Source: Clostridiales bacterium | GTDB lineage: Bacteria > Bacillota > Clostridia > Christensenellales > DUVY01 | Assembly (NCBI GenBank): GCA_031263605.1 | Contig: JAISFM010000153.1 | Location: 1-15,709 of the forward strand | Direction: 5' to 3' | DNA: 15,709 nt | Shown: positions 2 to 15,506 of the stretch, in pieces | How the letters are laid out: the number at the start of each line of letters is the position of its first letter | Numbering within the stretch: position 1 is the first letter of the stretch | Program-made: the position numbers and the translations under genes | Notes under the pieces: model-generated | What the model was told of the DNA's origin: nothing | Database searches by the model: none | The model's input: only the letters and a program-made list of their open reading frames with translations

Positions 2-976
2 GGCGTACTCGCCCTGTCCGTCGGCGCGGTCTTTTTGAACGCGGCGATCCCCGCCGACGCGGCGGCGGGCGGCTACGCGTGGTCGGAAAGCGCGGCGTTC
101 GCCCCCGATTTAGGGCCGTCGGCCGAAATGGGGGAGGATGGGCTGCGAATTCTGATCCTCACCGACCAACATTATACGCGCGTGTTCGGCGACGGCAAAA
201 CCGACCGCCTCGCGGACGCTTTGATACGGGACGAGCGGCCGGATTTGATTTTGCTGCTGGGCGACCAATGCTTTACGCCGTTCAACCGTTCCGCTTATAA
301 ACGCCTTATCGCGTTTATGGACGCGCGGAAAATCCCATGGGCGGCGATCTTCGGCAACCACGACGAGCAGGGCAAAGCGACAAAAAACCTGTTGGCGGAC
401 ATGCTGTCGAAATCCGAATATTGTTTGTTCCGGTACGGGCCGAATAATATCGGCGGCGCGGGCAATTACTTTGTCCGTTTGACGAGCGGCGGGCGGGACG
501 TCCACACCCTTTATTTTTTGGATTCCACGGTTAAAAAGGACGGGCATTACCAGCCGCCGACCGAGGGGCAGGTCCGTTGGTACGAATGGGCGGTACGCGG
601 CATGGCAGCCGAGGCGGGCGGGGTCGTCCCCTCTACGCTGCTGATCCATATCCCGCTGCCCGAATACGCGGCCGCATACGACGCGGCGGCGGCAAACGGG
701 GGCGTCGTTTACGGGCAGCGGAGGGAAAAGGAATGCGCGTCCGACGTCAATTCCGGCCTGTTTGAAAAGATCGGGGGTTTAGGCTCGACGAAAGGCGTCT
801 TTTGCGGCCACGACCATGTCAACGATTATTCGGTGATGCACGAGGGGGTTCGGCTGACTTACGCGCTGTCGTCGGGATTCGGCTCCTACGGCGACAGAAA
901 CGTCAAGGGCGGGACGGTTTTGACGGTGCGCCCCGACGGGGCGACGGAACAGGCACAGGTCTTTTTTAAAGGGTAG
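2..976 (+). CDS. Calcineurin-like metallophosphoesterase, 5'-partial. The reading frame is open to the window start, and the N-terminal hydrophobic stretch GVLALSVGAVFL suggests a signal or TM anchor.
   Basis: Metallophosphoesterase motifs are present in order: ILTDQHY (D-x-H), LLGDQ (GD), GNHDE (GNH[DE]) and GHDHVND (GH-x-H). The frame is open from nt 2, so the listed M at 35 is a TTG inside a longer frame. Confidence 0.75.
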   Translation, partial: GVLALSVGAVFLNAAIPADAAAGGYAWSESAAFAPDLGPSAEMGEDGLRILILTDQHYTRVFGDGKTDRLADALIRDERPDLILLLGDQCFTPFNRSAYKRLIAFMDARKIPWAAIFGNHDEQGKATKNLLADMLSKSEYCLFRYGPNNIGGAGNYFVRLTSGGRDVHTLYFLDSTVKKDGHYQPPTEGQVRWYEWAVRGMAAEAGGVVPSTLLIHIPLPEYAAAYDAAAANGGVVYGQRREKECASDVNSGLFEKIGGLGSTKGVFCGHDHVNDYSVMHEGVRLTYALSSGFGSYGDRNVKGGTVLTVRPDGATEQAQVFFKG

Positions 977-3397: not shown

Positions 3398-4015
3398 TTA
3401 GCGGTTTCCGGTTCGGGGCCTTTGATAGTTCGGGTTTTTTATCTTGATCCACGCCTCGGCGCGCCGCCCGGGGAAATACTGCCCGTCCGACCGTTTGGCG
3501 ACAATCCCTTCTAAATTTTCCCGCGCGGCCGCTTGGAACAACGCTTTGCCCGCCGACGGGAAAACGTCGGTCAATTCGATATTGGCGAAATTCGCGCCGG
3601 CGAATAACCTTTCCAATACCTTGCGCCGCTCTTGCCAAGGCCGCTCTGTCAGGGTTTTGCCGTCCGACGCCAAAAGATCGAAAACGGCATAGCGGACGGG
3701 GGTTTCCTTTAAAAACCGCGCGGACGGTTTTTCGACCCGGTCGCGTTTTAGCAAACGATAGAAATCGGGCCGTCCGTCCGCGTTCAGCGCGATAATTTCG
3801 CCGTCCAAAACAACTTTGCGGTTTAAGTTTTTTAATTCGGCGGCGATTTCGGTATAGGTATTCGTTCGCCCGTGCCCCCGGCGGTTGACAAGGCGCGCGT
3901 CCCCGTCCCCGCAATAGGCCAGCATCCTCACGCCGTCGAATTTCAATTCAAAAACATAATCAGGGCTGTCGAACGCTTTTTCCGCCCTCGACAGCAGCAT
4001 CGGTTTAAATTCCAT
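3398..4015 (-). CDS. ATP-dependent DNA ligase, nucleotidyltransferase domain only (205 aa). It ends immediately after motif V. There is no OB domain and no recognisable SD, so it may be a truncated remnant or pseudogene.
   Basis: Motif I is KFDGVR (KxDGxR). FDLL (III), EGIVAK (IV) and WIKIK (V) are in the canonical order. The reverse complement of 4016-4035 shows no GGAGG. Confidence 0.65.
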   Translation of the reverse strand: MEFKPMLLSRAEKAFDSPDYVFELKFDGVRMLAYCGDGDARLVNRRGHGRTNTYTEIAAELKNLNRKVVLDGEIIALNADGRPDFYRLLKRDRVEKPSARFLKETPVRYAVFDLLASDGKTLTERPWQERRKVLERLFAGANFANIELTDVFPSAGKALFQAAARENLEGIVAKRSDGQYFPGRRAEAWIKIKNPNYQRPRTGNR

Positions 4016-4254
4016 AGGGGGAAGCGGAGTACCGCGGCGCGACGGATTTCATTTCTATAACAGTATGCCACACTTTTCCAAAATTACAGCCTTTTTTATA
4101 AAGCGGCGAAACTTCTTTGTATGAACTTTCGACTTTATTTGCGGTAAAACGCAATCGGTTTAATCAAATGCGCTTATTCAAGAGAACGAGCGGCGGCGGG
4201 AAGTATTGAAAACCGCGTTGCTCATGAACACGGCTCGGCCTTGCGCGGAGGACA

Positions 4255-4350
4255 GCGATTAGCGTCCAGTGTTGCCAATCTCTGTATAAAAATGTGCGTT
4301 TCGTGTTTTGTAGAGATTGCCGCGTCGCGCTGCGCGCTCCTCGCAATGAC
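4255..4350. repeat. R1 palindromic element, copy a. The right arm is gtagagattgccgcgtcgcgctgcgcgctcctcgcaatgac (4310-4350); the left arm is degenerate.
   Basis: The right arm is shared with copies at 4489-4530, 4540-4559 (partial), 5345-5386 and 12401-12441. The central tataaaaa..gcgtttcgtgtttt is shared with the 12326-12441 copy. Confidence 0.65.
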
Positions 4351-4374
4351 TTCGGCCGTTGCGCTCGCAACAGA

Positions 4375-4427
4375 GTTGCAGCGGAATTAAAAGGCGGGCG
4401 GAATTGCGCCGGATTTTTGCGGCAAAC
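4375..4427. repeat. Dispersed repeat R2, copy 2
   Basis: Matches 2672-2728. Confidence 0.6.
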
Positions 4428-4488
4428 CGAATGACAGAGGGCAGCGCGTTCGGAATGAGAGAGAAAAGCGCGGGGCGTTCCGGTGGTT

Positions 4489-4559
4489 GGTAGAGATTGC
4501 CGCGTCGCGCTTCGCGCTCCTCGCAATGACAACGGGGCGTTTGCGCTCCTCGCAATGAC
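4489..4559. repeat. R1 right-arm copy (4489-4530) plus a partial tandem right-arm fragment (4540-4559)
   Basis: ggtagagattgccgcgtcgcgcttcgcgctcctcgcaatgac, followed by gtttgcgctcctcgcaatgac. Confidence 0.65.
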
Positions 4560-4660
4560 CCCGTATTCATTTCGCTGCAAGTCTAATGACCGGTAATAGT
4601 TTGTACACTCCCCACCGTAAAACACTGGCGTAAAATAAAGTAATATGATATACTATTGCC

Positions 4661-4800
4661 ATTAAACGACATTTTTCTCATGTTGACCCGTCAAGGCGGG
4701 TCTATAAGAAGAAAACAATCCGGCTCCAAGCGGAAAATCGGACAGAGCACATAAAAGAATGTTCGTACCGGATCGATACCCCGCGGCTTGCGCGTTGACG
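4661..4800 (+). ncRNA. R3, a conserved ~140-nt intergenic element, copy 1. The second copy is at 15365-15506. It is either a candidate structured leader/small RNA or a dispersed repeat.
   Basis: Two same-orientation copies at roughly 80% identity. One stem, tccgN/tcgga, shows a G-U to A-U change between copies. An internal gacccg-tcaagg-cgggtc hairpin is present in copy 1. Both copies end with a TTGAC(G/A) hexamer. Confidence 0.35.
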
Positions 4801-4868
4801 TTCGCAGAGCCCGTCCCCCGATTGGACGTTACCAAACAAAAATAGAGTACATAAGGAGAATACATACA

Positions 4869-5066
4869 ATGGCAACGGCAACCCCTATTCATGTGACGCC
4901 CCGTCCCGACGGGAAATGGCAGGTCATCAGAGGCGGCGGCGAAAAAGCGTCGGCCGTGACCGACACCCAAGCCGAAGCGATCGAAATCGCGAAAGGGTAC
5001 TCCCACAACGACGGCGCGCAGGTCATCGTCCACGGCCGCGGCGGCAAAATCCGCAAAAGTTGGTAA
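4869..5066 (+). CDS. DUF2188 family small protein (65 aa)
   Basis: AGGAGA RBS 7 nt upstream of the ATG. The sequence HVTPRPDGKWQVIRGGGEKASAVTDTQAEAIEIAKGYSHNDGAQVIVHGRGGKIRKSW matches the DUF2188 pattern (HV.P..DG.W.V...G..RA....T.AEAI..A......g..v.iHg.DGkI). Confidence 0.7.
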   Translation: MATATPIHVTPRPDGKWQVIRGGGEKASAVTDTQAEAIEIAKGYSHNDGAQVIVHGRGGKIRKSW

Positions 5067-5191
5067 GAAAGGCTTGATAGTATAGCCCCCCCTTTCCGGA
5101 AACCCGTCCAAACCGGCGGGTCTTTTTGCATGGCACGGCGGCACGGGGGAAGTGAGAATCGAGAAATGTTGGAATTTAGTGGTTAGTGATT

Positions 5192-5327
5192 AGTGTCGGT
5201 CGGGGGATGTTTGCGCGGGGAAACCACCCCGTAGCCTGTCGGCGGCATCCCTCCGAGGGAGGGGAATAGAGAAGTGAGAATTGAAAATTGAAAATTGAGA
5301 AGTGTCGGTCGGGGGATGTTTGCGCGC
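5192..5327. repeat. Direct 26-mer repeat agtgtcggtcgggggatgtttgcgcg (5192-5217 and 5301-5327) flanking purine-rich (gaaaatt)n microsatellite-like sequence
   Basis: Exact duplication read from the sequence. Confidence 0.6.
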
Positions 5328-5344
5328 GGGGCGTTCCTGTGTTT

Positions 5345-5386
5345 GGTAGAGATTGCCGCGTCGCGCTTTGCGCTCCTCGCAATGAC
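5345..5386. repeat. R1 right-arm copy
   Basis: ggtagagattgccgcgtcgcgctttgcgctcctcgcaatgac. Confidence 0.65.
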
Positions 5387-5408
5387 GAAGCGTTCCTGTG
5401 TTTGTTTG

Positions 5409-5480
5409 CTTACCGTTTATCTTTTACTTCTTACCTCTTACCTTGTTATCTTTACACCTTTCCCTCTCCCCTTTTCTCCC
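5409..5480 (+). repeat. ~72-nt pyrimidine (CT)-rich low-complexity tract
   Basis: cttaccgtttatcttttacttcttacctcttaccttgttatctttacacctttccctctccccttttctccc. Strong strand asymmetry. It mirrors the purine-rich tracts at 5147-5190 and 5269-5300. Confidence 0.55.
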
Positions 5481-5522
5481 AAATTCTCAATTAAAAAATA
5501 TTTCGGTACCTGCGCAAAAACA

Positions 5523-5575
5523 GTTGACAAAGTATTTAGGTATCTGTTATAATATAGTTAGGTACCGATAAATAG
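5523..5575 (+). promoter_or_regulatory. Sigma-A-type promoter with an overlapping inverted repeat that is a likely MarR operator. -35 is TTGACA at 5523-5528, spacer is 17 bp, and the extended -10 is TGtTATAAT at 5546-5554. The repeat is atttaggta...taggtgcctaaat.
   Basis: Canonical hexamers with correct spacing, about 50 nt upstream of the marR-family CDS. The inverted repeat tatttaggta / ataggtgcctaaata brackets the -10. Confidence 0.65.
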
Positions 5576-5604
5576 GTGCCTAAATAAAAAGGAGGGACAT
5601 TATT

Positions 5605-6294
5605 ATGTCTAAACAAACTAAGGAACTGTACGAAAAACTGATGCGGCTGCAACGGATTTTGCGCCGCTTCCAATTCCACACCAAAATCGCCAACGGGCCC
5701 ATGAGCGACACGGCGCAAGGGCAGGGCAGGGTCATGGCTATCCTGAAAATGCGCCCCGAAATAAGTGTGGGCGACCTGGCCTATTTGTTGGGGATACGCG
5801 CGTCCTCGCTGAACGAACTCCTCAACCGGCTGGAAAAGGGCGGCTATATCACCCGGACGGCCTCGGAGGAGGACAAGCGCGTCGTCATCGTGCGCCTGAC
5901 CGAAAAGGGCAAAAACGAGGAACTGCCCGACACCGGCGTCGAATCCATGTTCGATTGCCTGAACGAGGGCGAACGCAAAACCCTTGGGGAATACCTCGAC
6001 CGGATTTTGGCCGCGCTGAAGGACAAGGTGGGCGACGAGCGCGACGATTTCGACCTGATGAAGGCCTTGCGGCAACGCAAGGGCGAACAATTCGGGCGCG
6101 ACTTCGAGCGTTTCGGCAGAGGCGTAGAACGGTTCGGCGAGGACTTTGAGCGCAAAATGCGCGGGTTCTTCGACGGCTTTCACGGGGGAGAGGATGCCGA
6201 TTGCGCGGAGGATCCCGACGACGGCGCAGAGGCCGGCGAAAAGCGCGGCGATAACGACGGCGAAGGGCAGGACGACGGCGGCAAAGTGGATTAA
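5605..6294 (+). CDS. MarR family transcriptional regulator with a C-terminal acidic low-complexity extension containing FGRDFERFG / VERFGEDFER repeats
   Basis: AAGGAGGG RBS. The winged-HTH core is GDLAYLLGIRASSLNELLNRLEKGGYITR...DKRVVIVRLTEKG. The last ~80 aa are D/E/G/R-rich. Confidence 0.8.
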   Translation: MSKQTKELYEKLMRLQRILRRFQFHTKIANGPMSDTAQGQGRVMAILKMRPEISVGDLAYLLGIRASSLNELLNRLEKGGYITRTASEEDKRVVIVRLTEKGKNEELPDTGVESMFDCLNEGERKTLGEYLDRILAALKDKVGDERDDFDLMKALRQRKGEQFGRDFERFGRGVERFGEDFERKMRGFFDGFHGGEDADCAEDPDDGAEAGEKRGDNDGEGQDDGGKVD

Positions 6295-6741: not shown

Positions 6742-6816
6742 TGGGGTGTAGCCAAGCGGTAAGGCACGGGACTTTGACTCCCGCATTCGTAGGTTCAAAT
6801 CCTCCCACCCCAGCCA
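6742..6816 (+). tRNA. tRNA-Gln (anticodon TTG)
   Basis: Cloverleaf folded by hand. Acceptor tggggtg/cacccca. Anticodon stem cggga/tcccg with loop cTTTGac (U33, A37). T-loop ttcaaat. Discriminator g plus encoded CCA. There is one T-stem mismatch and a 3-bp D-stem. Confidence 0.8.
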
Positions 6817-6930: not shown

Positions 6931-7920
6931 TTATTTTTGCGGCGTATGCATAAGCCGGAGTTGTTTTGCCAACCGTTCTTTGATTTGGCCTACAAAGCCT
7001 TGCGGGCTTAGGACTTTTACGGTGGGGCCGAAAGACAGTATCCGAATGAGCAATTCCGTTTCATCCGCAATATCGTAAGAGAGTTGGCAGGTATAAATAC
7101 CGCGATCGGGGTCATATTCGGTTTTGCGGTCAAAAGAGGCGAATTGCAACAGGAAACGTTCCAACGCATTCCGCTCCTTCGTGATTTCAAGCGTTATCGG
7201 CGGATTGGCATTCGGTTCTGTGAACAATTTGCGCACGATTTCCGGCGGCGCGCGGTGCGGCAAGCCCGACGGCTCAACCGAAACGATTCTGCCGAGATTT
7301 AAGGTTACTTTATTCAATTTTTGCGTTTTGGCGTTGAATGCGGCGCACAGCAGGCGGAATTTATCGTTAAGAGATGAATAACTTAATTTGAACGGGTGAT
7401 AGGCGCGTTGCGACCGCCCGACCCTTTCGCTGTGATAAACGATTGCGACGGGATACTTGTTTTTGCAGGCTTTTAGCAGTTCACGGAAGTTGGCGATATA
7501 AGCCGGGTCGCCGTAAGGGTCTCCGTCAAGGTGGCGGTCAACGGAAATAAAATCGCCCGCGTCAAAGGCGGGGGCGACGCCGCTTAACGCCCGCGCCAGC
7601 GTCGCCAGAGTTTCATCGCTTAAAAACAACCTTATGCGCGGGTCGGACAATAACGCTTTCAGCCACGATAATTCAAGTTGCGTCAGCGGCCGGATCGGCT
7701 GCGCGTCCAATTTTGAATAGTATAAATCGCCGCGCTTTTCCAGAAAGTTCCAGTCGCCGTCCAAAAGTTCGGGCAACAGGTGGAATGCCGTCTCGGAAAA
7801 ACCGTGTTCGCTTACGACGGCGTCGATATCTTTTTTGGAGACGCCGCCGCCGGCGCGCTTAACAATACGCGAAACTATGCCGTAGTAGCAGCCGTACAGT
7901 TCGGAAAACAGTTTACTCAT
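6931..7920 (-). CDS. WYL domain-containing protein, 329 aa (PafC-like partner). A WYL-like core (FRLLCAAF...LNLGRIVSVEP) is followed by a WCX-like C-terminus (ELLIRILSFGPTVKVLSPQGFVGQIKERL). Start at ATG 7920 with a GGGAGGAGG RBS, overlapping the upstream gene's stop by 8 nt.
   Basis: The C-terminal ILSFGP.V.VL.P motif is characteristic of WYL/WCX regulators. The N-terminus is paralogous to the upstream gene (MSKLFSEL vs MAEFSEL). The ORF-track M at 8007 lacks an RBS, so internal M30 with a strong SD is chosen. Confidence 0.65.
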   Translation of the reverse strand: MSKLFSELYGCYYGIVSRIVKRAGGGVSKKDIDAVVSEHGFSETAFHLLPELLDGDWNFLEKRGDLYYSKLDAQPIRPLTQLELSWLKALLSDPRIRLFLSDETLATLARALSGVAPAFDAGDFISVDRHLDGDPYGDPAYIANFRELLKACKNKYPVAIVYHSERVGRSQRAYHPFKLSYSSLNDKFRLLCAAFNAKTQKLNKVTLNLGRIVSVEPSGLPHRAPPEIVRKLFTEPNANPPITLEITKERNALERFLLQFASFDRKTEYDPDRGIYTCQLSYDIADETELLIRILSFGPTVKVLSPQGFVGQIKERLAKQLRLMHTPQK

Positions 7921-9145
7921 CGCCCGCCTCCTCCCGTATCCCGTACATCTCGGCCATGCGGCGGATATCGGCGGCCAGTTTTTTTTCAAGCCGGTCGGTC
8001 GATTCAAAAGATATAAGTCTGCCGATAAAAGTTTTTACCCACGGCATCGCTTCGTTAGCGTCGAATATATCCTTGGAAAACTTAAAAGTATTGTCGCCGA
8101 CGCGCTCGAACGCGCCGCCGCGCCCTTCCTTGTTTATCCTGCTTATAATATGCTTTTCACGGTTCTCGTCGATGCGCAGGGTCATAGAAAACCCCCTTTC
8201 GTTCCTTGAATCGCCGTCGAATGAAACGCCCCAGACCCTGCCGATGTTTCGGGAGAGGGATTCCTGTATTTCCATATAGTTTTCGACCGGTTCTAAGGCC
8301 GCGACGGATTTGATTGCGTCGAGGCGGTAGGTTGAAAACCTGCGGGAGGCGGGGAGGTACGCGCAAAGGTAGCGGCGGCCGCTCCAAAAACTGCACAGGA
8401 TTTTTGCGGGCACGACTCTGTTTTTTACCGGTTTCCCGCTTTTTGCGCCGACGAGTACGGCCTCGATTTCTTTATGTTCGCGCAGGGCGTCCAGAATATC
8501 GAAAAGGATTCCGTCTTCAAGCGTGTGCGCTATGTAATGGTGCTTGAACACGAATAAATCGTTTTCACAGCCGGTATTGTCCAAGATATAGTCGCCGATT
8601 ATGCCCAAGGCGCCGCTTTGGAAAAATTTGACGGCGTCCAAGATTTCGTCGTCTAAATTTACGGTGTTTTTTGATAGGCTGTAACGGAACGCTTTGCCGT
8701 TCTTTTCTTTGGTCAGAATGCCCAATCCCGCGTACTCGGCGCACTTGCCGCGCACGGTTTGCAGGTCAAAGAAGTTGCCGCTTTTAGCCGATATTTCATC
8801 GGTCAATTCGTCCGCCGACTTATCGCCGGTTTGCAACGCGTCCAAAATGTAAAAGTGCAGCATAATATCGTTGCCTGTGAAACTCTTGCTTTTCCACGCC
8901 GCGAATAAAGGGTTGGCGGGGATTTTTCCGCAATCCGCGGAAACGAACGAAACCTTACTGCCGCCGGCATAAGCCCATTTGAAGTTTTCGCCTAAATAAC
9001 TTTCGCAGCGGCGTTTTTCGTTATCGTATGTGCGGGCGGATTTCAATGAAAAATCATCGCGCGCCTTAAACCCGTATATGTAAAAGTCGCGCATAAAGTC
9101 TCTGATTTTATTGAAGTTTTTAATGAGTTCCGAAAATTCCGCCAT
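7913..9145 (-). CDS. WYL domain-containing protein, 410 aa (PafB-like partner). WYL motif: PAKILCSFWSGRRYLCAYLPASRRFSTYRLDAIKSV. C-terminus: MPWVKTFIGRLISFESTDRLEKKL.
   Basis: Start at ATG 9145 (GAGGT RBS), chosen over the ORF-track start at 9262. WYL consensus is wYLvay...r..R.frLdRI. It is translationally coupled (8-nt overlap) to the downstream WYL paralog. Confidence 0.65.
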   Translation of the reverse strand: MAEFSELIKNFNKIRDFMRDFYIYGFKARDDFSLKSARTYDNEKRRCESYLGENFKWAYAGGSKVSFVSADCGKIPANPLFAAWKSKSFTGNDIMLHFYILDALQTGDKSADELTDEISAKSGNFFDLQTVRGKCAEYAGLGILTKEKNGKAFRYSLSKNTVNLDDEILDAVKFFQSGALGIIGDYILDNTGCENDLFVFKHHYIAHTLEDGILFDILDALREHKEIEAVLVGAKSGKPVKNRVVPAKILCSFWSGRRYLCAYLPASRRFSTYRLDAIKSVAALEPVENYMEIQESLSRNIGRVWGVSFDGDSRNERGFSMTLRIDENREKHIISRINKEGRGGAFERVGDNTFKFSKDIFDANEAMPWVKTFIGRLISFESTDRLEKKLAADIRRMAEMYGIREEAGDE

Positions 9146-9214
9146 AGCGTACAACCTCGAACTATGCGTACATATTGTATCAAAAAAACGCGCGCAAGTC
9201 AAAGTAACGGAAGG

Positions 9215-9270
9215 CTCGCAAACTTTTTTATACGCAAAACCGTGTTTTTCGGGTTTTCGCAAACTTTTCT
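9215..9270. promoter_or_regulatory. Divergent intergenic region with direct repeats, a candidate operator for the WYL pair or the rtcB promoter. The repeats are ctcgcaaactttttta (9215-9230) and ttcgcaaacttttct (9256-9270), plus cgcaaaac at 9233-9240.
   Basis: Repeats are spaced ~41 bp apart (about four helical turns) between the WYL-B start (9145) and the rtcB start (9342). TTGATA and TATAAT-like hexamers are present at 9291-9312. Confidence 0.4.
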
Positions 9271-9341
9271 ATTCGGTAATTATAGATCGGGCTTGATATA
9301 ATGGCGGTATAATCAAAACGATCAAACGGAGGGCAAAAGCA

Positions 9342-10574
9342 ATGTTCACGGTAAAAAACAAAAAAATGAAGTTTCCGATTAAGGCTTGGCTTAAAAACAG
9401 AAGCCAAACGGAAGAGGGGTGTTTGGAGCAGGCCATGCGCCTTGCCGAGATGCCGTTTTTACATAAATGGGTCGCCCTTATGCCCGACGCGCATGTCGGA
9501 ATGGGAATGCCTATCGGCGGCGTTATCGCTGCGAAAGGCGTTGTAATCCCGAACGCGGTCGGCGTCGATATCGGGTGCGGCATGGCTTATGCGGGGACGG
9601 ATATCAGGGTTGCGGAGGTACGGGGAATCGCCACAGGCAACGGGCCGTTCATGCAGGCCCTTGTGGGGGATATACTCCGCAACATTCCGGTCGGCTTTAA
9701 CCGCCATAAGACAAAACAGGCTTGCGCCGCTTTGGACAAGGCGGCCGCCGAGGCGGATAAATACGCGGCGAACCCCGAACTTGCCCGGGAGATAGAAAAC
9801 GGATACTATCAAGCCGGAACGTTGGGCGGCGGCAATCATTTTATCGAAATTCAGGAATCCGACGACGGATTTTTGGGAATCATGATCCATTCGGGCAGCC
9901 GCAACTTCGGAAAGCAAATATGCGACTATTATCATAAAGCCGCCCGCGCGCTCAACGAAAAGTGGTACGCGCCTATTCCCGACGAATGGCGGCTGGCGTT
10001 CTTGCCGATCGACAGCAAGGAAGGGAAACAATATATCGACTGGATGAATCTTGCGCTTGACTTTGCCTATGAAAACCGCGCGTTGATGTTGAAGGCGACG
10101 CAAAACATACTGGACAGGATGATGCAAAAATACGCGCATGCCGACTATAAGTATACGGACGAGATTAACTGCCACCACAATTACGCCGCTATCGAGCATC
10201 ATTATGACGCGAACGTCTGGGTTCACCGTAAGGGCGCGACAAGGGCGAGAGCGGGCGAGAGGGCTGTAATCCCCGGAGCGATGGGCTCTTACAGTTATAT
10301 CGTCGAGGGATTAGGGAATGCGGAAAGTTTTTGTTCGAGTTCTCACGGCGCGGGCAGGCGGTATTCCCGTAAGGGCGCGACGGAAGCGTTTACGGCCGAA
10401 CAGGTACTGCGCGACTTAAAGGGGCAAGGCGTTGTGTTGGGCAAAAACAACAAAGCCGACGTCGCCGAAGAAAGCCGCTTCGCGTACAAGGACATAGACG
10501 AAGTTATGAGCAATCAAAAAGACCTCGTTAAAGCCGTAACGCGCTTGAAAACCGTGGGCGTCGTAAAGGGCTGA
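9342..10574 (+). CDS. rtcB: RNA ligase RtcB (3'-phosphate/5'-OH RNA-splicing ligase), 410 aa
   Basis: GGAGGG RBS. Hallmark segments: PDAHVGMGMPIGGV, GVDIGCGM, GGGNHFIEIQ, HSGSRNFG, CHHNYA, and SSHGAGR containing the nucleophilic His. Confidence 0.9.
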   Translation: MFTVKNKKMKFPIKAWLKNRSQTEEGCLEQAMRLAEMPFLHKWVALMPDAHVGMGMPIGGVIAAKGVVIPNAVGVDIGCGMAYAGTDIRVAEVRGIATGNGPFMQALVGDILRNIPVGFNRHKTKQACAALDKAAAEADKYAANPELAREIENGYYQAGTLGGGNHFIEIQESDDGFLGIMIHSGSRNFGKQICDYYHKAARALNEKWYAPIPDEWRLAFLPIDSKEGKQYIDWMNLALDFAYENRALMLKATQNILDRMMQKYAHADYKYTDEINCHHNYAAIEHHYDANVWVHRKGATRARAGERAVIPGAMGSYSYIVEGLGNAESFCSSSHGAGRRYSRKGATEAFTAEQVLRDLKGQGVVLGKNNKADVAEESRFAYKDIDEVMSNQKDLVKAVTRLKTVGVVKG

Positions 10575-10599
10575 CAAAGCGTACTAAGGGCTTTAAAAC

Positions 10600-10760
10600 C
10601 CTAAAATACATCTGTTATTATCCTATACGGACGGTTTCTATGCCGTCGTGGTGCCCTTCGTCTCTGACCGTCGGGTATGCCGGATAGTAATAGGCCCCCG
10701 CGGTTGGGATTACCGCTCCGAGACAGTATGCGGGTTCGATTCCCGCGCCAAGTAATTGGA
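10600..10760 (+). ncRNA. Candidate tRNA-like/Y-RNA-like (YrlA-type) non-coding RNA downstream of rtcB. It contains a canonical T-arm gcggg-TTCGATT-cccgc (10730-10746) and a plausible anticodon-like hairpin gcggt-tgggatt-accgc (10700-10716). No complete cloverleaf or acceptor stem could be folded.
   Basis: A T-arm consensus (GGTTCGATTCC) sits in a 500-nt gene-free region immediately 3' of rtcB. The minus-strand ORF 10618..10926 translates to ...GAGIEPA..., the classic artefact of reading a tRNA T-arm in reverse. Module boundaries are uncertain. Confidence 0.35.
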
Positions 10761-11080
10761 TGTTGGCAACAGAAAGCGGCCTGATAAGCCACAGTATTTG
10801 AAACTGTTCAAGGAAAACCGGATTTGAAGCAAGGGCTTCCGGCGCGTTCGCCAAAGCGGGCAATGCCCGTAGCGGCGATGCGCGCGGCGGCTTTCTTGTC
10901 CGCGGCGCGGGGATACCGTTCGGCAAACCTTAAACCCATAACGCTTTTTACGAAAGGCGCACGCCGGATAAGGCCGCCCGAACTCAACCGCCGCCCCACA
11001 AAAAAGGCGCGGAAGCCTTTGCGGAAAATCTTATTCAAACACAAAAACAACAAAAAAACAAATTTAGGAGAAGCGGAGAA

Positions 11081-12184
11081 ATGAAAATCATCATCCATCA
11101 AAACGAGCGCGGTTTCTTATTCAAGAACGGTACATACAAGAGGATGCTGCAACCCGGCAAAAACAAGGTAAATACTTTTTTAGGCGAGACCTTTGTGCGC
11201 GTCGGTTTGGACAAACCGGTTAAGGTCGCCGGTACGGATACGGAGATTTTAATGCGGGACGCGGAGTTTGCCGCAAGCGTGTTAAAGGTTGACGTCCCCG
11301 ACGGCTGTTTCGGCGCGGTTTTCAAGGACAACTGCATCAAGGACATCTATAAGGCGGGTAGTCATGTCTTTTTCAACCTCTACGGCAACCTGTCTTTCAA
11401 ATTGATCGACATTTCCAAGGTGGAGGTTGAGGACCTGACCCCTTCGCAGATTGACAGCCTGCCGAAAGGCCTTTACAAAAAGATTGTCGTTGCCGAGGGC
11501 GAGGTGGGTTTGTTAAATCTTGACGGTAAGTTTGTCCGTGAACTGAAAGCGGGCGCGTACTGCTTTTGGGATGCTTATACCGCCGTAACTTGCGAGAAGG
11601 TCGATTTGCGCTCTCAGGAACTGGAAATTAACGGTCAAGAGATTTTGACCGCCGATAAGGTATCTTTGCGCGTAAACTTTATCGCGAACTACCGCGTCAC
11701 GGACGCCGTTAAAATCACCGGAGAGGTCAAGAACTACAAGGAGCGCATCTATACGGTTACGCAACTGGCTTTGCGCGAGTATATCGGCAAGTTCCGTTTC
11801 GACGAACTTTTGGAACAGAAAGAGAATATCGCGTCAAGCGTTTTGACCCAACTTCAAGCAAAGTTCGGCGAATATTGCGTTGAGTTTACGGGCGCGGGCT
11901 TAAAGGACATCGTCCTGCCCGGCGAGATTCGGGACATCATGAACACCGTTCTGATTGCCGAGAAAAACGCTCAAGCCAACGTTATCGCCCGTCGCGAGGA
12001 GGTCGCGTCCACCCGGAGTTTGCTTAACACGGCCAAACTTTTGGACGAAAACGCCACGCTTTACAGGTTAAAGGAAATGGAATATTTAGAAAAAATCTGC
12101 GACAAGGTCGGCACAATCTCCGTCGGCGGCGGCAGCCTCTTAACCGAACTTCAAAAAATCGTCGGCGCGCCCCGGGCTAAATAG
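11081..12184 (+). CDS. SPFH/band-7 (stomatin/prohibitin/flotillin-like) domain protein, 367 aa
   Basis: AGGAGAAGCGGAGAA RBS. SPFH-like core: LREYIGKFRFDELLEQKENI...IVLPGEIRDIMNTVLIAEKNAQANVIARREE. Confidence 0.6.
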   Translation: MKIIIHQNERGFLFKNGTYKRMLQPGKNKVNTFLGETFVRVGLDKPVKVAGTDTEILMRDAEFAASVLKVDVPDGCFGAVFKDNCIKDIYKAGSHVFFNLYGNLSFKLIDISKVEVEDLTPSQIDSLPKGLYKKIVVAEGEVGLLNLDGKFVRELKAGAYCFWDAYTAVTCEKVDLRSQELEINGQEILTADKVSLRVNFIANYRVTDAVKITGEVKNYKERIYTVTQLALREYIGKFRFDELLEQKENIASSVLTQLQAKFGEYCVEFTGAGLKDIVLPGEIRDIMNTVLIAEKNAQANVIARREEVASTRSLLNTAKLLDENATLYRLKEMEYLEKICDKVGTISVGGGSLLTELQKIVGAPRAK

Positions 12185-12331: not shown

Positions 12332-12441
12332 GTCATCGCGAGGAGCGAACGCAGTGAGCGACGAAGCAATCTCTATATAAAAAGGCGCGTTTCGTGTTTT
12401 GTAGAGATTGCCGCGTCGCGCGTCGCGCTCCTCGCAATGAC
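12332..12441. repeat. R1 element, complete inverted-repeat copy. Left arm gtcatcgcgaggagcgaacgcagtgagcgacgaagcaatctcta; central tataaaaaggcgcgtttcgtgtttt; right arm gtagagattgccgcgtcgcgcgtcgcgctcctcgcaatgac. It is followed by the R4 module gtttgtacaccactcccgtgagg (12466-12510; compare 4598-4625).
   Basis: The arms are reverse complements of each other over ~40 nt. Same family as 4255-4350 and others. Confidence 0.7.
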
Positions 12442-12521
12442 TTGCCGTGTTTACAATCAACGCGGTTTGTACACCACTCCCGTGAGGTTAACAGTTTCTA
12501 CACCCGCGAGGTTAAAATCGT

Positions 12522-12671: not shown

Positions 12672-12776
12672 ATGTCTAAAACGGGAATATTCCTTTTTAC
12701 GGCTTGTCTGTTAATCCGCCGCGGCTTTGGCGATTTTTAGGCAAGCCGTTTTCATATGTCAATAAAAAAGGAATTT

Positions 12777-13850
12777 ATGAATACAAATAACAAATTGACT
12801 ATCGTCTCGGACGATAAAAACTGGATGGAGGGCAGCGCGGTAAATCAAGCCCGTGAGGTTTGCAATCTTGACGGGGTTCAAGCCGTGTTCGCTATGCCCG
12901 ACCTTCACGCGGGCAAAACGCCCGTAGGGGTAGTCGTCATCACAAAGGGCAAAATCTACCCTCATTTAATCGGCTCGGATATCGGTTGCGGAATGAGTAT
13001 ATTCTCGACCGGCGTCGAGAGCAAAAGAATCAAAACGGACAGGTGGGTTAGCCGCCTTAACACGATCAAAACCTTGGCGGCGGTTCCGAATAGCGAATAC
13101 CGTTTCGATTGCCCGATACCGGATTTCGGAAGCATAGGCTCCGGCAACCATTTCGCCGAGTTTCAAGCAATCCACGAGGTCTTTGACGCGGGCGGTTTGG
13201 CGGCTCTGGCAATGGACAAATCCGAACTTTTTATGACCGTTCACAGTGGATCGAGAAGTTACGGGAGTAAAATCTTGCAAGAGTTTAACGACCGCAACGG
13301 CTACGCCGCGGACGGCAAAGAGGCAAAAGGATATCTGGAAAAACACGGCGACGCTCTTTTTTGGGCGGCAAAGAACAGGTATGAGTCGGCAAAGAAGTTA
13401 ATCGATTACTTGGGCTTTTCGCAAGCGGTAGAGCGCAAACTGGAATGCGGCCATAATTTTTTGGAGCGGTCCGGCGGCTTGTATTATCACCGCAAGGGAG
13501 TTGTGTCCGCTCAAACCGGCGCAGTGCTTATCGCGGGTTCGAGAGGGACGCTCAGTTACATCGTAAGGCCGACGGCTAAATGCGCGGAGTACGGTTACAG
13601 TTTGGCGCACGGTAGCGGCAGGAAATGGGCGCGCAGTATGTGTAAGCCCCGCATTCGGGAAAAGTACACCTTGGAAACAATCAAGCGGAACAAGTTCGGC
13701 GGCCAACTGGTTTGCCACGATTACGGTTTGCTGTTCGAGGAAGCGCCGGACGCGTACAAGAATGTGGACGTTATTATTGCCGTATTGGAACGGTACGGCA
13801 TGATTGAGCGCGTCGCCGCCCTCAAACCTGTGCTTACTTTTAAGGGTTAG
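12777..13850 (+). CDS. rtcB2: RtcB-family RNA ligase paralog (release factor H-coupled RtcB2), 357 aa. ATG 12777 with an AAGGA RBS is preferred to ATG 12756.
   Basis: RtcB motifs: MPDLHAGKTPVGVVV, GSDIGCGM, GSGNHFAEFQ, HSGSRSYG, CGHNF, and AHGSGRK containing the nucleophilic His. It sits immediately upstream of prfH. Confidence 0.85.
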   Translation: MNTNNKLTIVSDDKNWMEGSAVNQAREVCNLDGVQAVFAMPDLHAGKTPVGVVVITKGKIYPHLIGSDIGCGMSIFSTGVESKRIKTDRWVSRLNTIKTLAAVPNSEYRFDCPIPDFGSIGSGNHFAEFQAIHEVFDAGGLAALAMDKSELFMTVHSGSRSYGSKILQEFNDRNGYAADGKEAKGYLEKHGDALFWAAKNRYESAKKLIDYLGFSQAVERKLECGHNFLERSGGLYYHRKGVVSAQTGAVLIAGSRGTLSYIVRPTAKCAEYGYSLAHGSGRKWARSMCKPRIREKYTLETIKRNKFGGQLVCHDYGLLFEEAPDAYKNVDVIIAVLERYGMIERVAALKPVLTFKG

Positions 13851-13864
13851 GGGGGGAGGAGCGT

Positions 13865-14476
13865 ATGTTATACCACATAACGGCGGGGCGCGGCCCTGCG
13901 GAATGCGAACTTGCGGTCGGAAGGTTTCTGGCCGTTTTGGCCGCCGAGACGGACGTTGAGGTTTTGGCGAAGGCGGAAGGGCGGTACGCGGGCTGCCTGA
14001 AATCCGCGCTTGTGAGGGCGGGCATAAACGGCCCGCCCTTGCAAGGCACGGTGCAATGGATATGCAGAAGCCCGTTCCGCCCTAACCACAAGAGAAAGAA
14101 TTGGTTTATCGGCGTTAACCGAATGGACGAGCCGAAAGATTGCGGTTATGAAATCGGCGGCGGCGGCGGCGTGGTTTTTCAGACCTTCGGCGCGAGCGGC
14201 AAGGGCGGGCAGCACGTAAACAAAACGGAATCCGCCGTCCGCGCCATCCATATCGCAACGGGGCTTACGGCGACCGCAAGCGGCGAGCGCAGCCAACATC
14301 AGAACAAGAAAACCGCCGTGGAGCGGTTGAATGAGTTGCTTCGGCAACGGGAGGACAGCCGGGATCTTTCCGAAAAGGGCGCGCTCTTTTTCAACCATAA
14401 TAACCTGTCCCGCGGCAGCCCCGCGCGGATATACGAGGGTATCGGCTTTAAGCGGATTACAGGAGATACAACATGA
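13865..14476 (+). CDS. prfH: Peptide chain release factor H (PrfH): a short RF homolog with the GGQ motif, lacking the codon-recognition domain 1. 203 aa.
   Basis: GGAGGAG RBS. SGKGGQHVNKTESAVRAIHIATG is the class-I RF peptidyl-hydrolase GGQ loop. The ~200 aa size and rtcB paralog adjacency match the RtcB2-PrfH module. Confidence 0.85.
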   Translation: MLYHITAGRGPAECELAVGRFLAVLAAETDVEVLAKAEGRYAGCLKSALVRAGINGPPLQGTVQWICRSPFRPNHKRKNWFIGVNRMDEPKDCGYEIGGGGGVVFQTFGASGKGGQHVNKTESAVRAIHIATGLTATASGERSQHQNKKTAVERLNELLRQREDSRDLSEKGALFFNHNNLSRGSPARIYEGIGFKRITGDTT

Positions 14477-15364: not shown

Positions 15365-15506
15365 TTAAACGGACATTTTTCTCATGTTTGCCCGTCAAGA
15401 AAGCCCAATCAGAAGAAAATAGTCCGACTTCAAGCGGAAACATCGGACAGAGTAGAAAGAAAAATGCCCGTATCGGGTCGATATCTCGCGGCTTGCCGCG
15501 TTGACA
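15365..15506 (+). ncRNA. R3 conserved element, copy 2, beginning 11 nt after the operon stop. It is followed by a perfect GC hairpin ccccgccg-cttg-cggcgggg at 15541-15560.
   Basis: Aligns with 4661-4800 over its whole length. Confidence 0.35.

Follow-up and report, generated by a model that had tools for sequence, protein, structure and literature searches.

The T-arm that lies downstream of rtcB in this clostridial DNA is best read as one arm of a circularly permuted tRNA-like module. To judge from sequence comparison, that module is embedded in a conserved, structured noncoding RNA of 0.4–1.4 kb that fills the gap between rtcB and a gene for an SPFH/Band-7 protein. We consider it likely, with real room for doubt, that this whole reading is correct and that the RNA serves as a cofactor or scaffold of an RtcB repair module.

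RtcB repair operons are widespread, and it matters how they locate what they repair and what part is played by the scaffold proteins and RNAs that go with them. The present analysis supplies a model with module boundaries, four compensated helices, tRNA tertiary signatures, a strict link to SPFH genes and two further conserved domains.

The rtcB–SPFH locus

The window (the whole stretch of DNA that was analysed, 15,709 nt) has the following features around the element.

6742–6816: tRNA-Gln, the sole ARAGORN call in the window
6931–8007 and 7913–9262, minus strand: two WYL-domain ORFs, divergent from rtcB
9342–10574, plus strand: rtcB, RNA 3'-phosphate ligase (Pfam RtcB, E=2.6e-114, 383 bits)
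10575–11080, plus strand: rtcB–SPFH gap, candidate large structured noncoding RNA (506 nt)
10592–10621, plus strand: weak promoter-like site from a consensus scan (TTTAAA/TTAAAA, 17–18 nt spacer, TG-n-TATTAT)
11081–12184, plus strand: SPFH/Band-7 (stomatin-family) gene (Pfam Band_7, E=4e-32)
12756–13850: rtcB2, a second ligase gene, 3' of the SPFH gene
13865–14476: prfH, a release-factor-H gene, with rtcB2 3' of the SPFH gene

With the rtcB stop at 10574 and the SPFH gene starting at 11081, the gene-free gap is 506 nt long, in keeping with the region of about 500 nt given in a first-pass annotation of this DNA. No ORF inside the gap is conserved between the window and the related locus L003, and ORF lengths in the gaps of relatives are unremarkable. 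L003 also has WYL-domain ORFs divergent from rtcB. An A/T-rich, TATA-like box recurs in relatives at the 5' side of the first conserved domain. A second assembly (L001) has a gap identical to that of the window (506/506), which argues against local misassembly; since both may derive from one organism or sample, the identity does not count as independent confirmation. By sequence, the SPFH gene product has stomatin, QmcA and HflK relatives in the PDB, and such relatives assemble as 16- to 26-subunit complexes. PADLOC recognised none of RtcB, SPFH and PrfH as a component of a defence system.

The first-pass annotation had described a T-arm about 130 nt after the rtcB stop, next to a hairpin with a 5-bp stem and a 7-nt loop. 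Both are there. The T-arm is perfect (GCGGG-UUCGAUU-CCCGC, 10730–10746; 5-bp stem, TΨC-type loop), is not part of any repeat within the window, and is a single observation where 0.017 would be expected per window by chance (first-order Markov resampling). It begins 156 nt after the stop; the distance of about 130 nt suits the adjacent hairpin (GCGGT-TGGGATT-ACCGC, 10700–10716). Equally sound was the judgement that this is not an ordinary tRNA: there is no cloverleaf, and ARAGORN calls no tRNA at the element. The Rfam search that had been proposed for the window copy returned neither a tRNA nor a YrlA match in 10540–11100, at the gathering threshold or even at E≤10. The minimum free energy fold of 10575–10780, computed from the single sequence, is not better than those of shuffled sequences (z=−1.1), so thermodynamics alone is uninformative here. 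The window sequence by itself cannot say what the element is.

Two candidates on the opposite strand were set aside. A Pseudomon-groES match on the minus strand (10817–10933; 28.7 bits against a gathering score of 50) was judged a chance match of G+C-rich hairpins. A terminator-like site on the minus strand (10792–10776) is the reverse complement of a conserved plus-strand hairpin region, and was rejected because its G-U pairs exist on the minus strand only and no minus-strand gene ends there. The comparative signal is all on the plus strand.

A circularly permuted tRNA-like module

The identity of the element emerges from its relatives. We fetched 80 genome loci encoding close relatives of RtcB, all from Clostridia and mostly from Lachnospiraceae. 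Most of them have a perfect T-arm 130–290 nt past the rtcB stop, on the same strand and with differing stem sequences, and almost none of these elements is called a tRNA by ARAGORN. Around the T-arm one order of parts recurs. A closing stem of 4–5 bp is followed by a 5-nt variable loop (usually GUGUC or UUGUC) and the T-arm; directly after the T-arm comes a self-complementary, acceptor-like hairpin of 4–12 bp, often with a GNRA cap; then follow UA, a canonical D-arm (GCUM-AGNGGUA-KAGC), an A and, last, the closing stem's 3' strand. Such a module is a tRNA in circular permutation: a loop closes its acceptor stem, and what would be the 'anticodon stem' leads out into the remainder of the RNA.

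Pairing in the module is strongly supported by compensatory change. In the 47 distinct modules that could be parsed, pairing reaches 95% in the acceptor-like stem and 80% in the closing stem, where shuffles give 49% and 47%, respectively. In an alignment of 34 sequences made with MAFFT (A2), 94.7% of the cells form pairs as against 66.1% in shuffles, and both sides have changed in 15 of the 18 pairs. None of 500 shuffles reached the covariation score of A2 (0.662 versus 0.164), and slid controls gave at most 0.17. The tertiary signature of tRNA is present as well: the relatives have the T-arm consensus GGUUCRAnUCC, the D-arm residues A14, R15, G18 and G19, U8-A9 and the R15:Y48 pair. This last, the Levitt pair, covaries: 41 modules have G15:C48 and 4 have A15:U48.

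A covariance model built from the 34-sequence alignment (R1) finds complete modules, at 50–80 bits, in 52 genome loci and in 36 metagenome loci from a separately fetched set, all in the same place. Across the family a single RNA has one to four tRNA-like units in tandem. Only loci with two T-arms contain a cloverleaf-like stretch (D1-hairpin-T2) with weak Rfam tRNA scores of 29–40 bits.

The copy in the window is made up as follows.

10700–10716, plus strand: hairpin GCGGU-UGGGAUU-ACCGC, apparently clade-specific, outside the module
10722–10764, plus strand: permuted tRNA-like module lacking the D-arm (alignment with L002; R1)
10722–10725 with 10761–10764, plus strand: closing stem, GACA with UGUU
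10726–10729, plus strand: V loop
10730–10746, plus strand: T-arm
10748–10759, plus strand: acceptor-like hairpin CCAA-GUAA-UUGG, with a GNRA loop

When this copy is aligned with its relatives, the 18–19 nt that make up UA and the D-arm are precisely absent between 10760 and 10761. The D-arm is kept by the three closest relatives, L002, L082 and L094 (84%, 85% and 82% RtcB identity to the window, respectively), and by every other complete module parsed; no other D-arm-less variant was seen among the loci examined, and metagenome contigs scanned for the exact pattern of the T-arm and acceptor-like hairpin of the window gave no match. R1 matches the T-arm and the acceptor-like hairpin of the window copy and skips the D-arm, and it is because of the missing D-arm that the score is just 17.9 bits (E=3e-4). 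There is no anticodon arm within the window module. That no cloverleaf could be folded thus has two causes, the circularly permuted order of the domains and the loss of the UA and D-arm segment.

Because it has no D-arm, the window copy is unable to make the tRNA elbow by which the mimic is defined in its relatives, and it may be non-functional. It retains the T-arm and acceptor 'minihelix' and all the scaffold domains described below, and could be either a reduced but working variant or a module in an early stage of decay. Either way, this natural deletion offers a means of learning whether the tRNA elbow is required.

The hairpin at 10700–10716 is a separate matter. It is present in L002 (same loop, one compensatory pair change) and in L082, and absent from L094 and from more distant relatives, a distribution that suggests an insertion specific to this clade. 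Its loop has neither U33 nor R37, and so is not anticodon-like.

The RNA around the module

The module is not all that is conserved. In 76 distinct homologous intergenic regions, 413–1399 nt long, conserved blocks occur along the whole length of the gap. Their counterparts in the window, outside the module, are these.

10630–10647, plus strand: hairpin P1 of the 5' domain, GACGG (10630–10634) with CCGUC (10643–10647)
10648–10683, plus strand: 5' domain after P1, beginning with GUGG (10648–10651; consensus GCGG)
10652–10656 with 10673–10677, plus strand: closing pairs of P2, UGCC(C) with (G)GGUA
10680–10683, plus strand: CCGG (CC(G/A) in the family), separated from P2 by a 2-nt bulge, U-G
10778–10790, plus strand: hairpin GGC-CUGAUAA-GCC, with an anticodon-loop-like 7-nt loop
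10791–10807, plus strand: hairpin ACAGU-AUUUGAA-ACUGU
10907–10991, plus strand: 3' domain, closed by helix K (10907–10910 with 10988–10991)
10911–10917 opposite 10984–10987, plus strand: conserved internal loop, GGAUACC opposite UCAA
10918–10923 with 10978–10983, plus strand: helix H
10942–10948 with 10953–10959, plus strand: hairpin enclosed by H, loop UACG
10991–11012, plus strand: terminal hairpin (10991–10996 with 11006–11012), followed by a U-containing tail and the SPFH ribosome-binding site

By inspection of the alignment, 52 relatives also have a hairpin where P1 lies in the 5' domain, and its stem sequence differs among them. Pairing is 98% for the closing pairs of P2, and these covary: U-A is replaced by C-G in 7 sequences and C-G by A-U in 5, so that UGCC/GGUA is found changed to CGCA/UGUG. 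For the two flanking G-C pairs it is 100%.

The two hairpins that follow the module in the window are conserved in L002, L082 and L094, where the loop of the first reads CUGUUAA, CUGUAAA and CUGUCAC, respectively. Hairpins with 7-nt loops of the CUGUNAA type occur in 29 of the 76 regions (7.1 ± 2.6 in shuffles). On the 3' side of the module, the RNAs continue with one to three further T-arm units or hairpins and then with GGAUACCG, which is near-invariant (68 of 76 regions). Around it, helices K and H with at least 8 bp in all and a 4-nt 3' strand can be formed in 47 of these 68 regions, compared with 13.3 ± 2.7 in shuffles, and the 4-nt strand opposite GGAUACC is UNAA in 40 of the 47. The sequences of K and H vary widely between lineages (26 distinct K strands). 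Ensemble folding leaves GGAUACC mostly unpaired and pairs the G that follows it. Hairpins of the form CCCCRC...GYGYGG were seen by inspection at the place of the terminal hairpin in L002, L003, L006, L009, L016, L084, L085 and L087. The 5' domain and the GGAUACC/UNAA loop are candidate sites of protein binding or tertiary contact. None of these parts of the larger RNA is matched by an Rfam family in the regions searched.

A long-range pairing between GGUAU(N)CC on the 5' side and GGAUACC on the 3' side, also drawn as a three-way junction, was dropped for lack of covariation: the 5' motif varies while GGAUACC is invariant, and the 5' motif pairs locally while GGAUACC lies unpaired in the internal loop between K and H.

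The element and the SPFH gene go together. The 80 genome rtcB loci comprise 50 with both, one with the element at a contig end, 29 with neither and none with SPFH alone, and in the 50 the SPFH gene is directly downstream of the element. In a set of 160 loci the partners are mutually exclusive: an SPFH protein in 83, a DUF2828/DUF7788 protein in 14 and a RING-family protein in 2. The module is downstream of the partner gene in two loci (L010 and L011), and in viral contigs it is found near homologues of DUF2828, RING-family and RtcB proteins. The DUF2828 protein, searched by sequence against the PDB, did not match Ro60. Cultured gut Clostridia are among the carriers of the element, for example [Clostridium] asparagiforme DSM 15981 (L023), Anaerocolumna xylanovorans DSM 12503 (L016), Enterocloster citroniae DSM 19261 (L031), Eisenbergiella porci (L029) and Petralouisia muris (L051).

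Possible functions and known systems

We propose that the RNA is probably a stable transcript that acts in trans, as cofactor or scaffold of the RtcB repair module. A tRNA-recognising protein, either RtcB itself or a tRNA-processing or -modifying enzyme, would use the L-shaped tRNA mimic as its handle, and the SPFH oligomer would attach to the 5' domain and the GGAUACC/UNAA loop, in parallel with the tethering of Ro60 to an effector by Y RNA. Binding to SPFH or RtcB we infer purely from gene linkage. Burroughs and Aravind share the cofactor or scaffold reading, according to the summary of their work in 10.1101/312249. A bolder version, which we put forward tentatively and would not yet bet on, is that the gap encodes an uncatalogued class of ornate RNA of 0.4–1.4 kb, with one to four tRNA mimics, the GGAUACC/UNAA loop and often mimics of GUN anticodon loops, which assembles with a cytosolic SPFH cage and RtcB into an RNA-repair ribonucleoprotein, a counterpart of Ro60-Y RNA. 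If a particle of RNA, SPFH oligomer and RtcB does exist, it would join Ro60-Y RNA as a second repair machine built on an RNA scaffold.

Several other readings have to be weighed against a trans-acting cofactor or scaffold. The strongest of them, which we nevertheless regard as unlikely, is that the RNA is a cis-acting leader of the SPFH gene, a structured element that senses a protein or RNA signal and controls read-through or translation. The conserved RNA invariably stops shortly ahead of the SPFH ribosome-binding site and abuts the SPFH start in every locus; it never occurs with rtcB alone; a terminal hairpin and U-containing tail precede the SPFH start in several lineages; and in the window, by inspection, the 3' strand of K can alternatively pair with a downstream GGCGCGG. 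Against it, the module lies downstream of its partner gene in L010 and L011, and near other partners in viral contigs. No plus-strand terminator was found by a scan of 9000–11300, and Rfam gave no riboswitch or T-box match at E≤10 in the gaps of the window and L006 or at the gathering threshold in 12 relatives. Moreover, 0.4–1.4 kb with one to four tRNA-like units is far above the typical size of a leader.

We give somewhat less credence to the idea that toxins which target tRNAs are met by the RNA as a decoy, bait or damage sensor. The tRNA mimic and the anticodon-loop-like hairpins would draw in ribotoxins, or would be cut and re-ligated by RtcB, and would thereby protect tRNAs or signal damage to the WYL regulators. 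The excess of CUGUNAA loops fits; these correspond to GUN-type anticodon loops (Asn, Asp, Tyr, His). The GUN group is the queuosine family of tRNAs and the target of colicin E5. [quoted passage not shown] Yet only 38% of the regions have such hairpins, whose position varies; in the window the loop reads CUGAUAA and is carried by a stem of 3 bp, and the conserved module has no anticodon loop. A decoy would also leave the invariant 5' domain and the GGAUACC/UNAA loop unexplained.

The first-pass annotation leaned towards a Y RNA or YrlA-like RNA, and part of that view holds: the element is a tRNA mimic linked to rtcB, and its relatives have the tRNA-like topology of YrlA. Membership of the YrlA/Y RNA family did not hold up in the tests run. 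YrlA RNAs were defined by Chen et al. (2014) by a tRNA-like domain, a GNCGAAN0-1G motif and a position within 4 kb of the Ro60 gene, the motif, near the YrlA 5' end, being the putative binding site of Ro60/Rsr (PMC4201824). A bona fide YrlA-type Y RNA would bind a Ro60/Rsr ring encoded at another place in the genome and tether it to an effector, as happens in Salmonella and Mycobacterium. In favour of this are the shared topology (T-arm, closed acceptor-like hairpin, D-arm and a closing stem leading on into the remainder of the RNA), a tertiary-pair signature in common and an rtcB linkage recalling the rsr-yrlBA-rtcBA operon. The YrlA domain order is found in the relatives; the window has the closing stem, T-arm and acceptor-like hairpin and no D-arm. 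Against it, the Rfam YrlA model (RF02553) reaches 30 bits on the complete modules of L006, far from its gathering score of 69, and aligns at model positions 22–89 only. These positions are exactly the tRNA-like core, which in L006 runs T, acceptor-like hairpin, D, whereas the Ro-binding stem (positions 1–21 and 90–114) never aligned, and the window itself has no match. The Ro60 motif is absent from the window gap and occurs in 6 of 76 regions, where 5.8 are expected by chance. No TROVE/Ro60 domain was found by Pfam among the 14 longest ORFs of the 15.7-kb window. The partner is invariably SPFH instead, and the loci with DUF2828, possibly a Ro-like partner, never have SPFH. On this balance we think a true Y RNA improbable, a little more so than a decoy.

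Least probable, and rejected here, is the other suggestion of the first-pass annotation, a decayed tRNA gene or former att site with no function of its own: the window copy does have neither D-arm nor anticodon arm, and neither ARAGORN nor Rfam makes a call, but the comparative data contradict this reading, with the element at one syntenic position across about 90 loci, compensatory substitutions in each of its four helices, flanking scaffold domains conserved in the window, no integrase or repeat flanking the element there, and a permuted order with a self-complementary acceptor-like hairpin that cannot arise by simple decay of one tRNA.

How, then, does the predicted cofactor or scaffold RNA compare with known systems? 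Its relatives share with canonical tRNA the T-arm, the D-arm, U8-A9 and R15:Y48; they differ in their permuted order, in having no anticodon arm and in having no free acceptor end, and the window copy differs further in its missing D-arm. Large bacterial RNAs such as ROOL, GOLLD, raiA and OLE resemble it in being several hundred nucleotides long, with many covarying helices and conserved internal loops. Some of these large ornate noncoding RNAs occur near tRNAs. The present RNA differs in being tied to one gene pair, and no such RNA was matched by Rfam, whether in 12 relatives searched at the gathering threshold or in two intergenic regions searched at E≤10.

The closest match in gene context comes from comparative genomics. 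As summarised by Wang et al. [quoted passage not shown] The b7a-tRNA is likewise tRNA-like, lies beside rtcB and a Band-7/SPFH gene and is predicted from comparative genomics only; here, too, a tRNA-like noncoding element sits between rtcB and an SPFH gene. The summary says that the b7a-tRNA 'strongly resembles an authentic tRNA', whereas the conserved unit here is permuted and lies inside a much longer RNA, and the window copy has no D-arm. Since the comparison is with a secondary summary, the name may denote the permuted module or the D1-hairpin-T2 stretch, and the extent of overlap is uncertain. No b7a-tRNA family was among the Rfam results, and the element itself is absent from Rfam. We file the element in this predicted Band-7-associated class because the linkage to rtcB and SPFH is reproduced and sharpened here; as the class had already been predicted by comparative genomics, the element is not categorically new. 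What goes beyond the descriptions that we could find, as far as we checked, is the larger RNA with its 5' domain and GGAUACC/UNAA loop, and the loss of the D-arm in the window.

The closest structurally characterised relative is YrlA, even though by the tests run the element does not appear to belong to the YrlA/Y RNA family. The two have in common a permuted tRNA-like domain with a closed acceptor stem and no free CCA end, conserved T and D loops, a covarying Levitt pair and a link to rtcB. They differ in scale and in company: the present RNA is 4–10 times longer, has up to four modules in tandem and has SPFH as its partner instead of rsr.

Anticodon-loop-like hairpins and the closest relative

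Hairpins with the 7-nt loop CUGUNAA recur between rtcB and the SPFH gene. They are present in 29 of the 76 distinct intergenic regions, as against 7.1 ± 2.6 in shuffled sequences, and their loops resemble anticodon loops (carriers include the RtcB-relative loci L002, L082, L094, L015, L016, L039, L044, L057 and L087). Anticodons of the form GUN (Asn, Asp, Tyr and His) make up the queuosine and colicin E5 target family. The window has its own version of this hairpin type:

10778-10790, plus strand: hairpin with loop CUGAUAA on a 3-bp stem

The closest relative of the window locus is L082 (RtcB identity 85%). Its region 1503-2120 retains the 5′ domain of the larger RNA and a complete module; beyond the second hairpin the sequence diverges. 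The near-invariant 3′-domain motif GGAUACCG was not found in the 620 nt read 3′ of rtcB, and the L082 locus looks rearranged or disrupted.

Partner genes other than SPFH

Related RNAs also accompany other genes. At L070, two tRNA-like RNAs (positions 4140-4380) with the order D...T score 17–23 bits with R1, the covariance model of the permuted module. Both precede the gene for a 521-residue DUF2828/DUF7788 protein (4445-6010), and together with it they form an alternative arrangement, upstream of rtcB. Homologues of this protein are encoded in L022, L027, L033, L036 and nine metagenome loci; among 160 loci, none was found to combine SPFH with the DUF2828/DUF7788 arrangement.

Loci L010 and L011 present a further arrangement, in which complete modules (T-arm, acceptor-like hairpin, D-arm) score 64–65 bits:

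L010, 9538-9610: complete module
L011, 9542-9614: complete module

In each case the module lies ∼40 nt 3′ of a 724-residue ORF, itself downstream of rtcB, that matches the MXAN_6230/SCO0854 RING-domain family at a score under the family cut-off. These two loci lack the SPFH gene and both the 5′ and 3′ scaffold domains.

We also searched IMG/VR for a T-loop with a D-arm after it, which gave 132 pattern matches. In 17 of these, a hairpin of 4–11 bp closes the interval between the two, as in the permuted module. These 17 loci fall within the viral contigs L173–L267 (for example L208, L227, L175, L225 and L184), and some have a neighbouring gene whose product is homologous to RtcB, to the DUF2828 protein or to the RING-family protein. 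The remaining matches look like ordinary tandem tRNA genes.

Repeats and further genes in the window

Two repeated sequences occur in the window:

4276-4352, 4456-4532, 5312-5388 and 12367-12443: 77-nt repeat family, 64–94% identity
4668-4791 and 15372-15496: ∼125-nt segment in two copies, ∼80% identity

The 77-nt copies contain internal inverted repeats, are dispersed through intergenic DNA and look like a small repetitive extragenic element. The ∼125-nt copies, 10.7 kb apart, each sit at the end of a minus-strand ORF.

The window also carries these genes:

7913-9262, minus strand: first WYL-domain ORF
6931-8007, minus strand: second WYL-domain ORF, also matching WCX
3398-4015, minus strand: 205-residue ORF with an ATP-dependent DNA/RNA ligase domain
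35-976, plus strand: calcineurin-like metallophosphoesterase ORF
12756-13850, plus strand: rtcB2, second RNA ligase gene (TIGR03073, 330 bits; cut-off 272)
13865-14476, plus strand: prfH, release-factor-H gene (TIGR03072, 184 bits; cut-off 167)

The two WYL-domain ORFs are divergent from rtcB, recur as a pair in L003 and are likely regulators of the rtcB operon. The ligase-domain and metallophosphoesterase ORFs may represent more nucleic-acid end-healing and sealing genes in this neighbourhood. Together, rtcB2 and prfH encode the RtcB2–PrfH ribosome-repair pair. They begin ∼0.6 kb downstream of the SPFH gene, so that the window carries two distinct RtcB repair modules next to each other.
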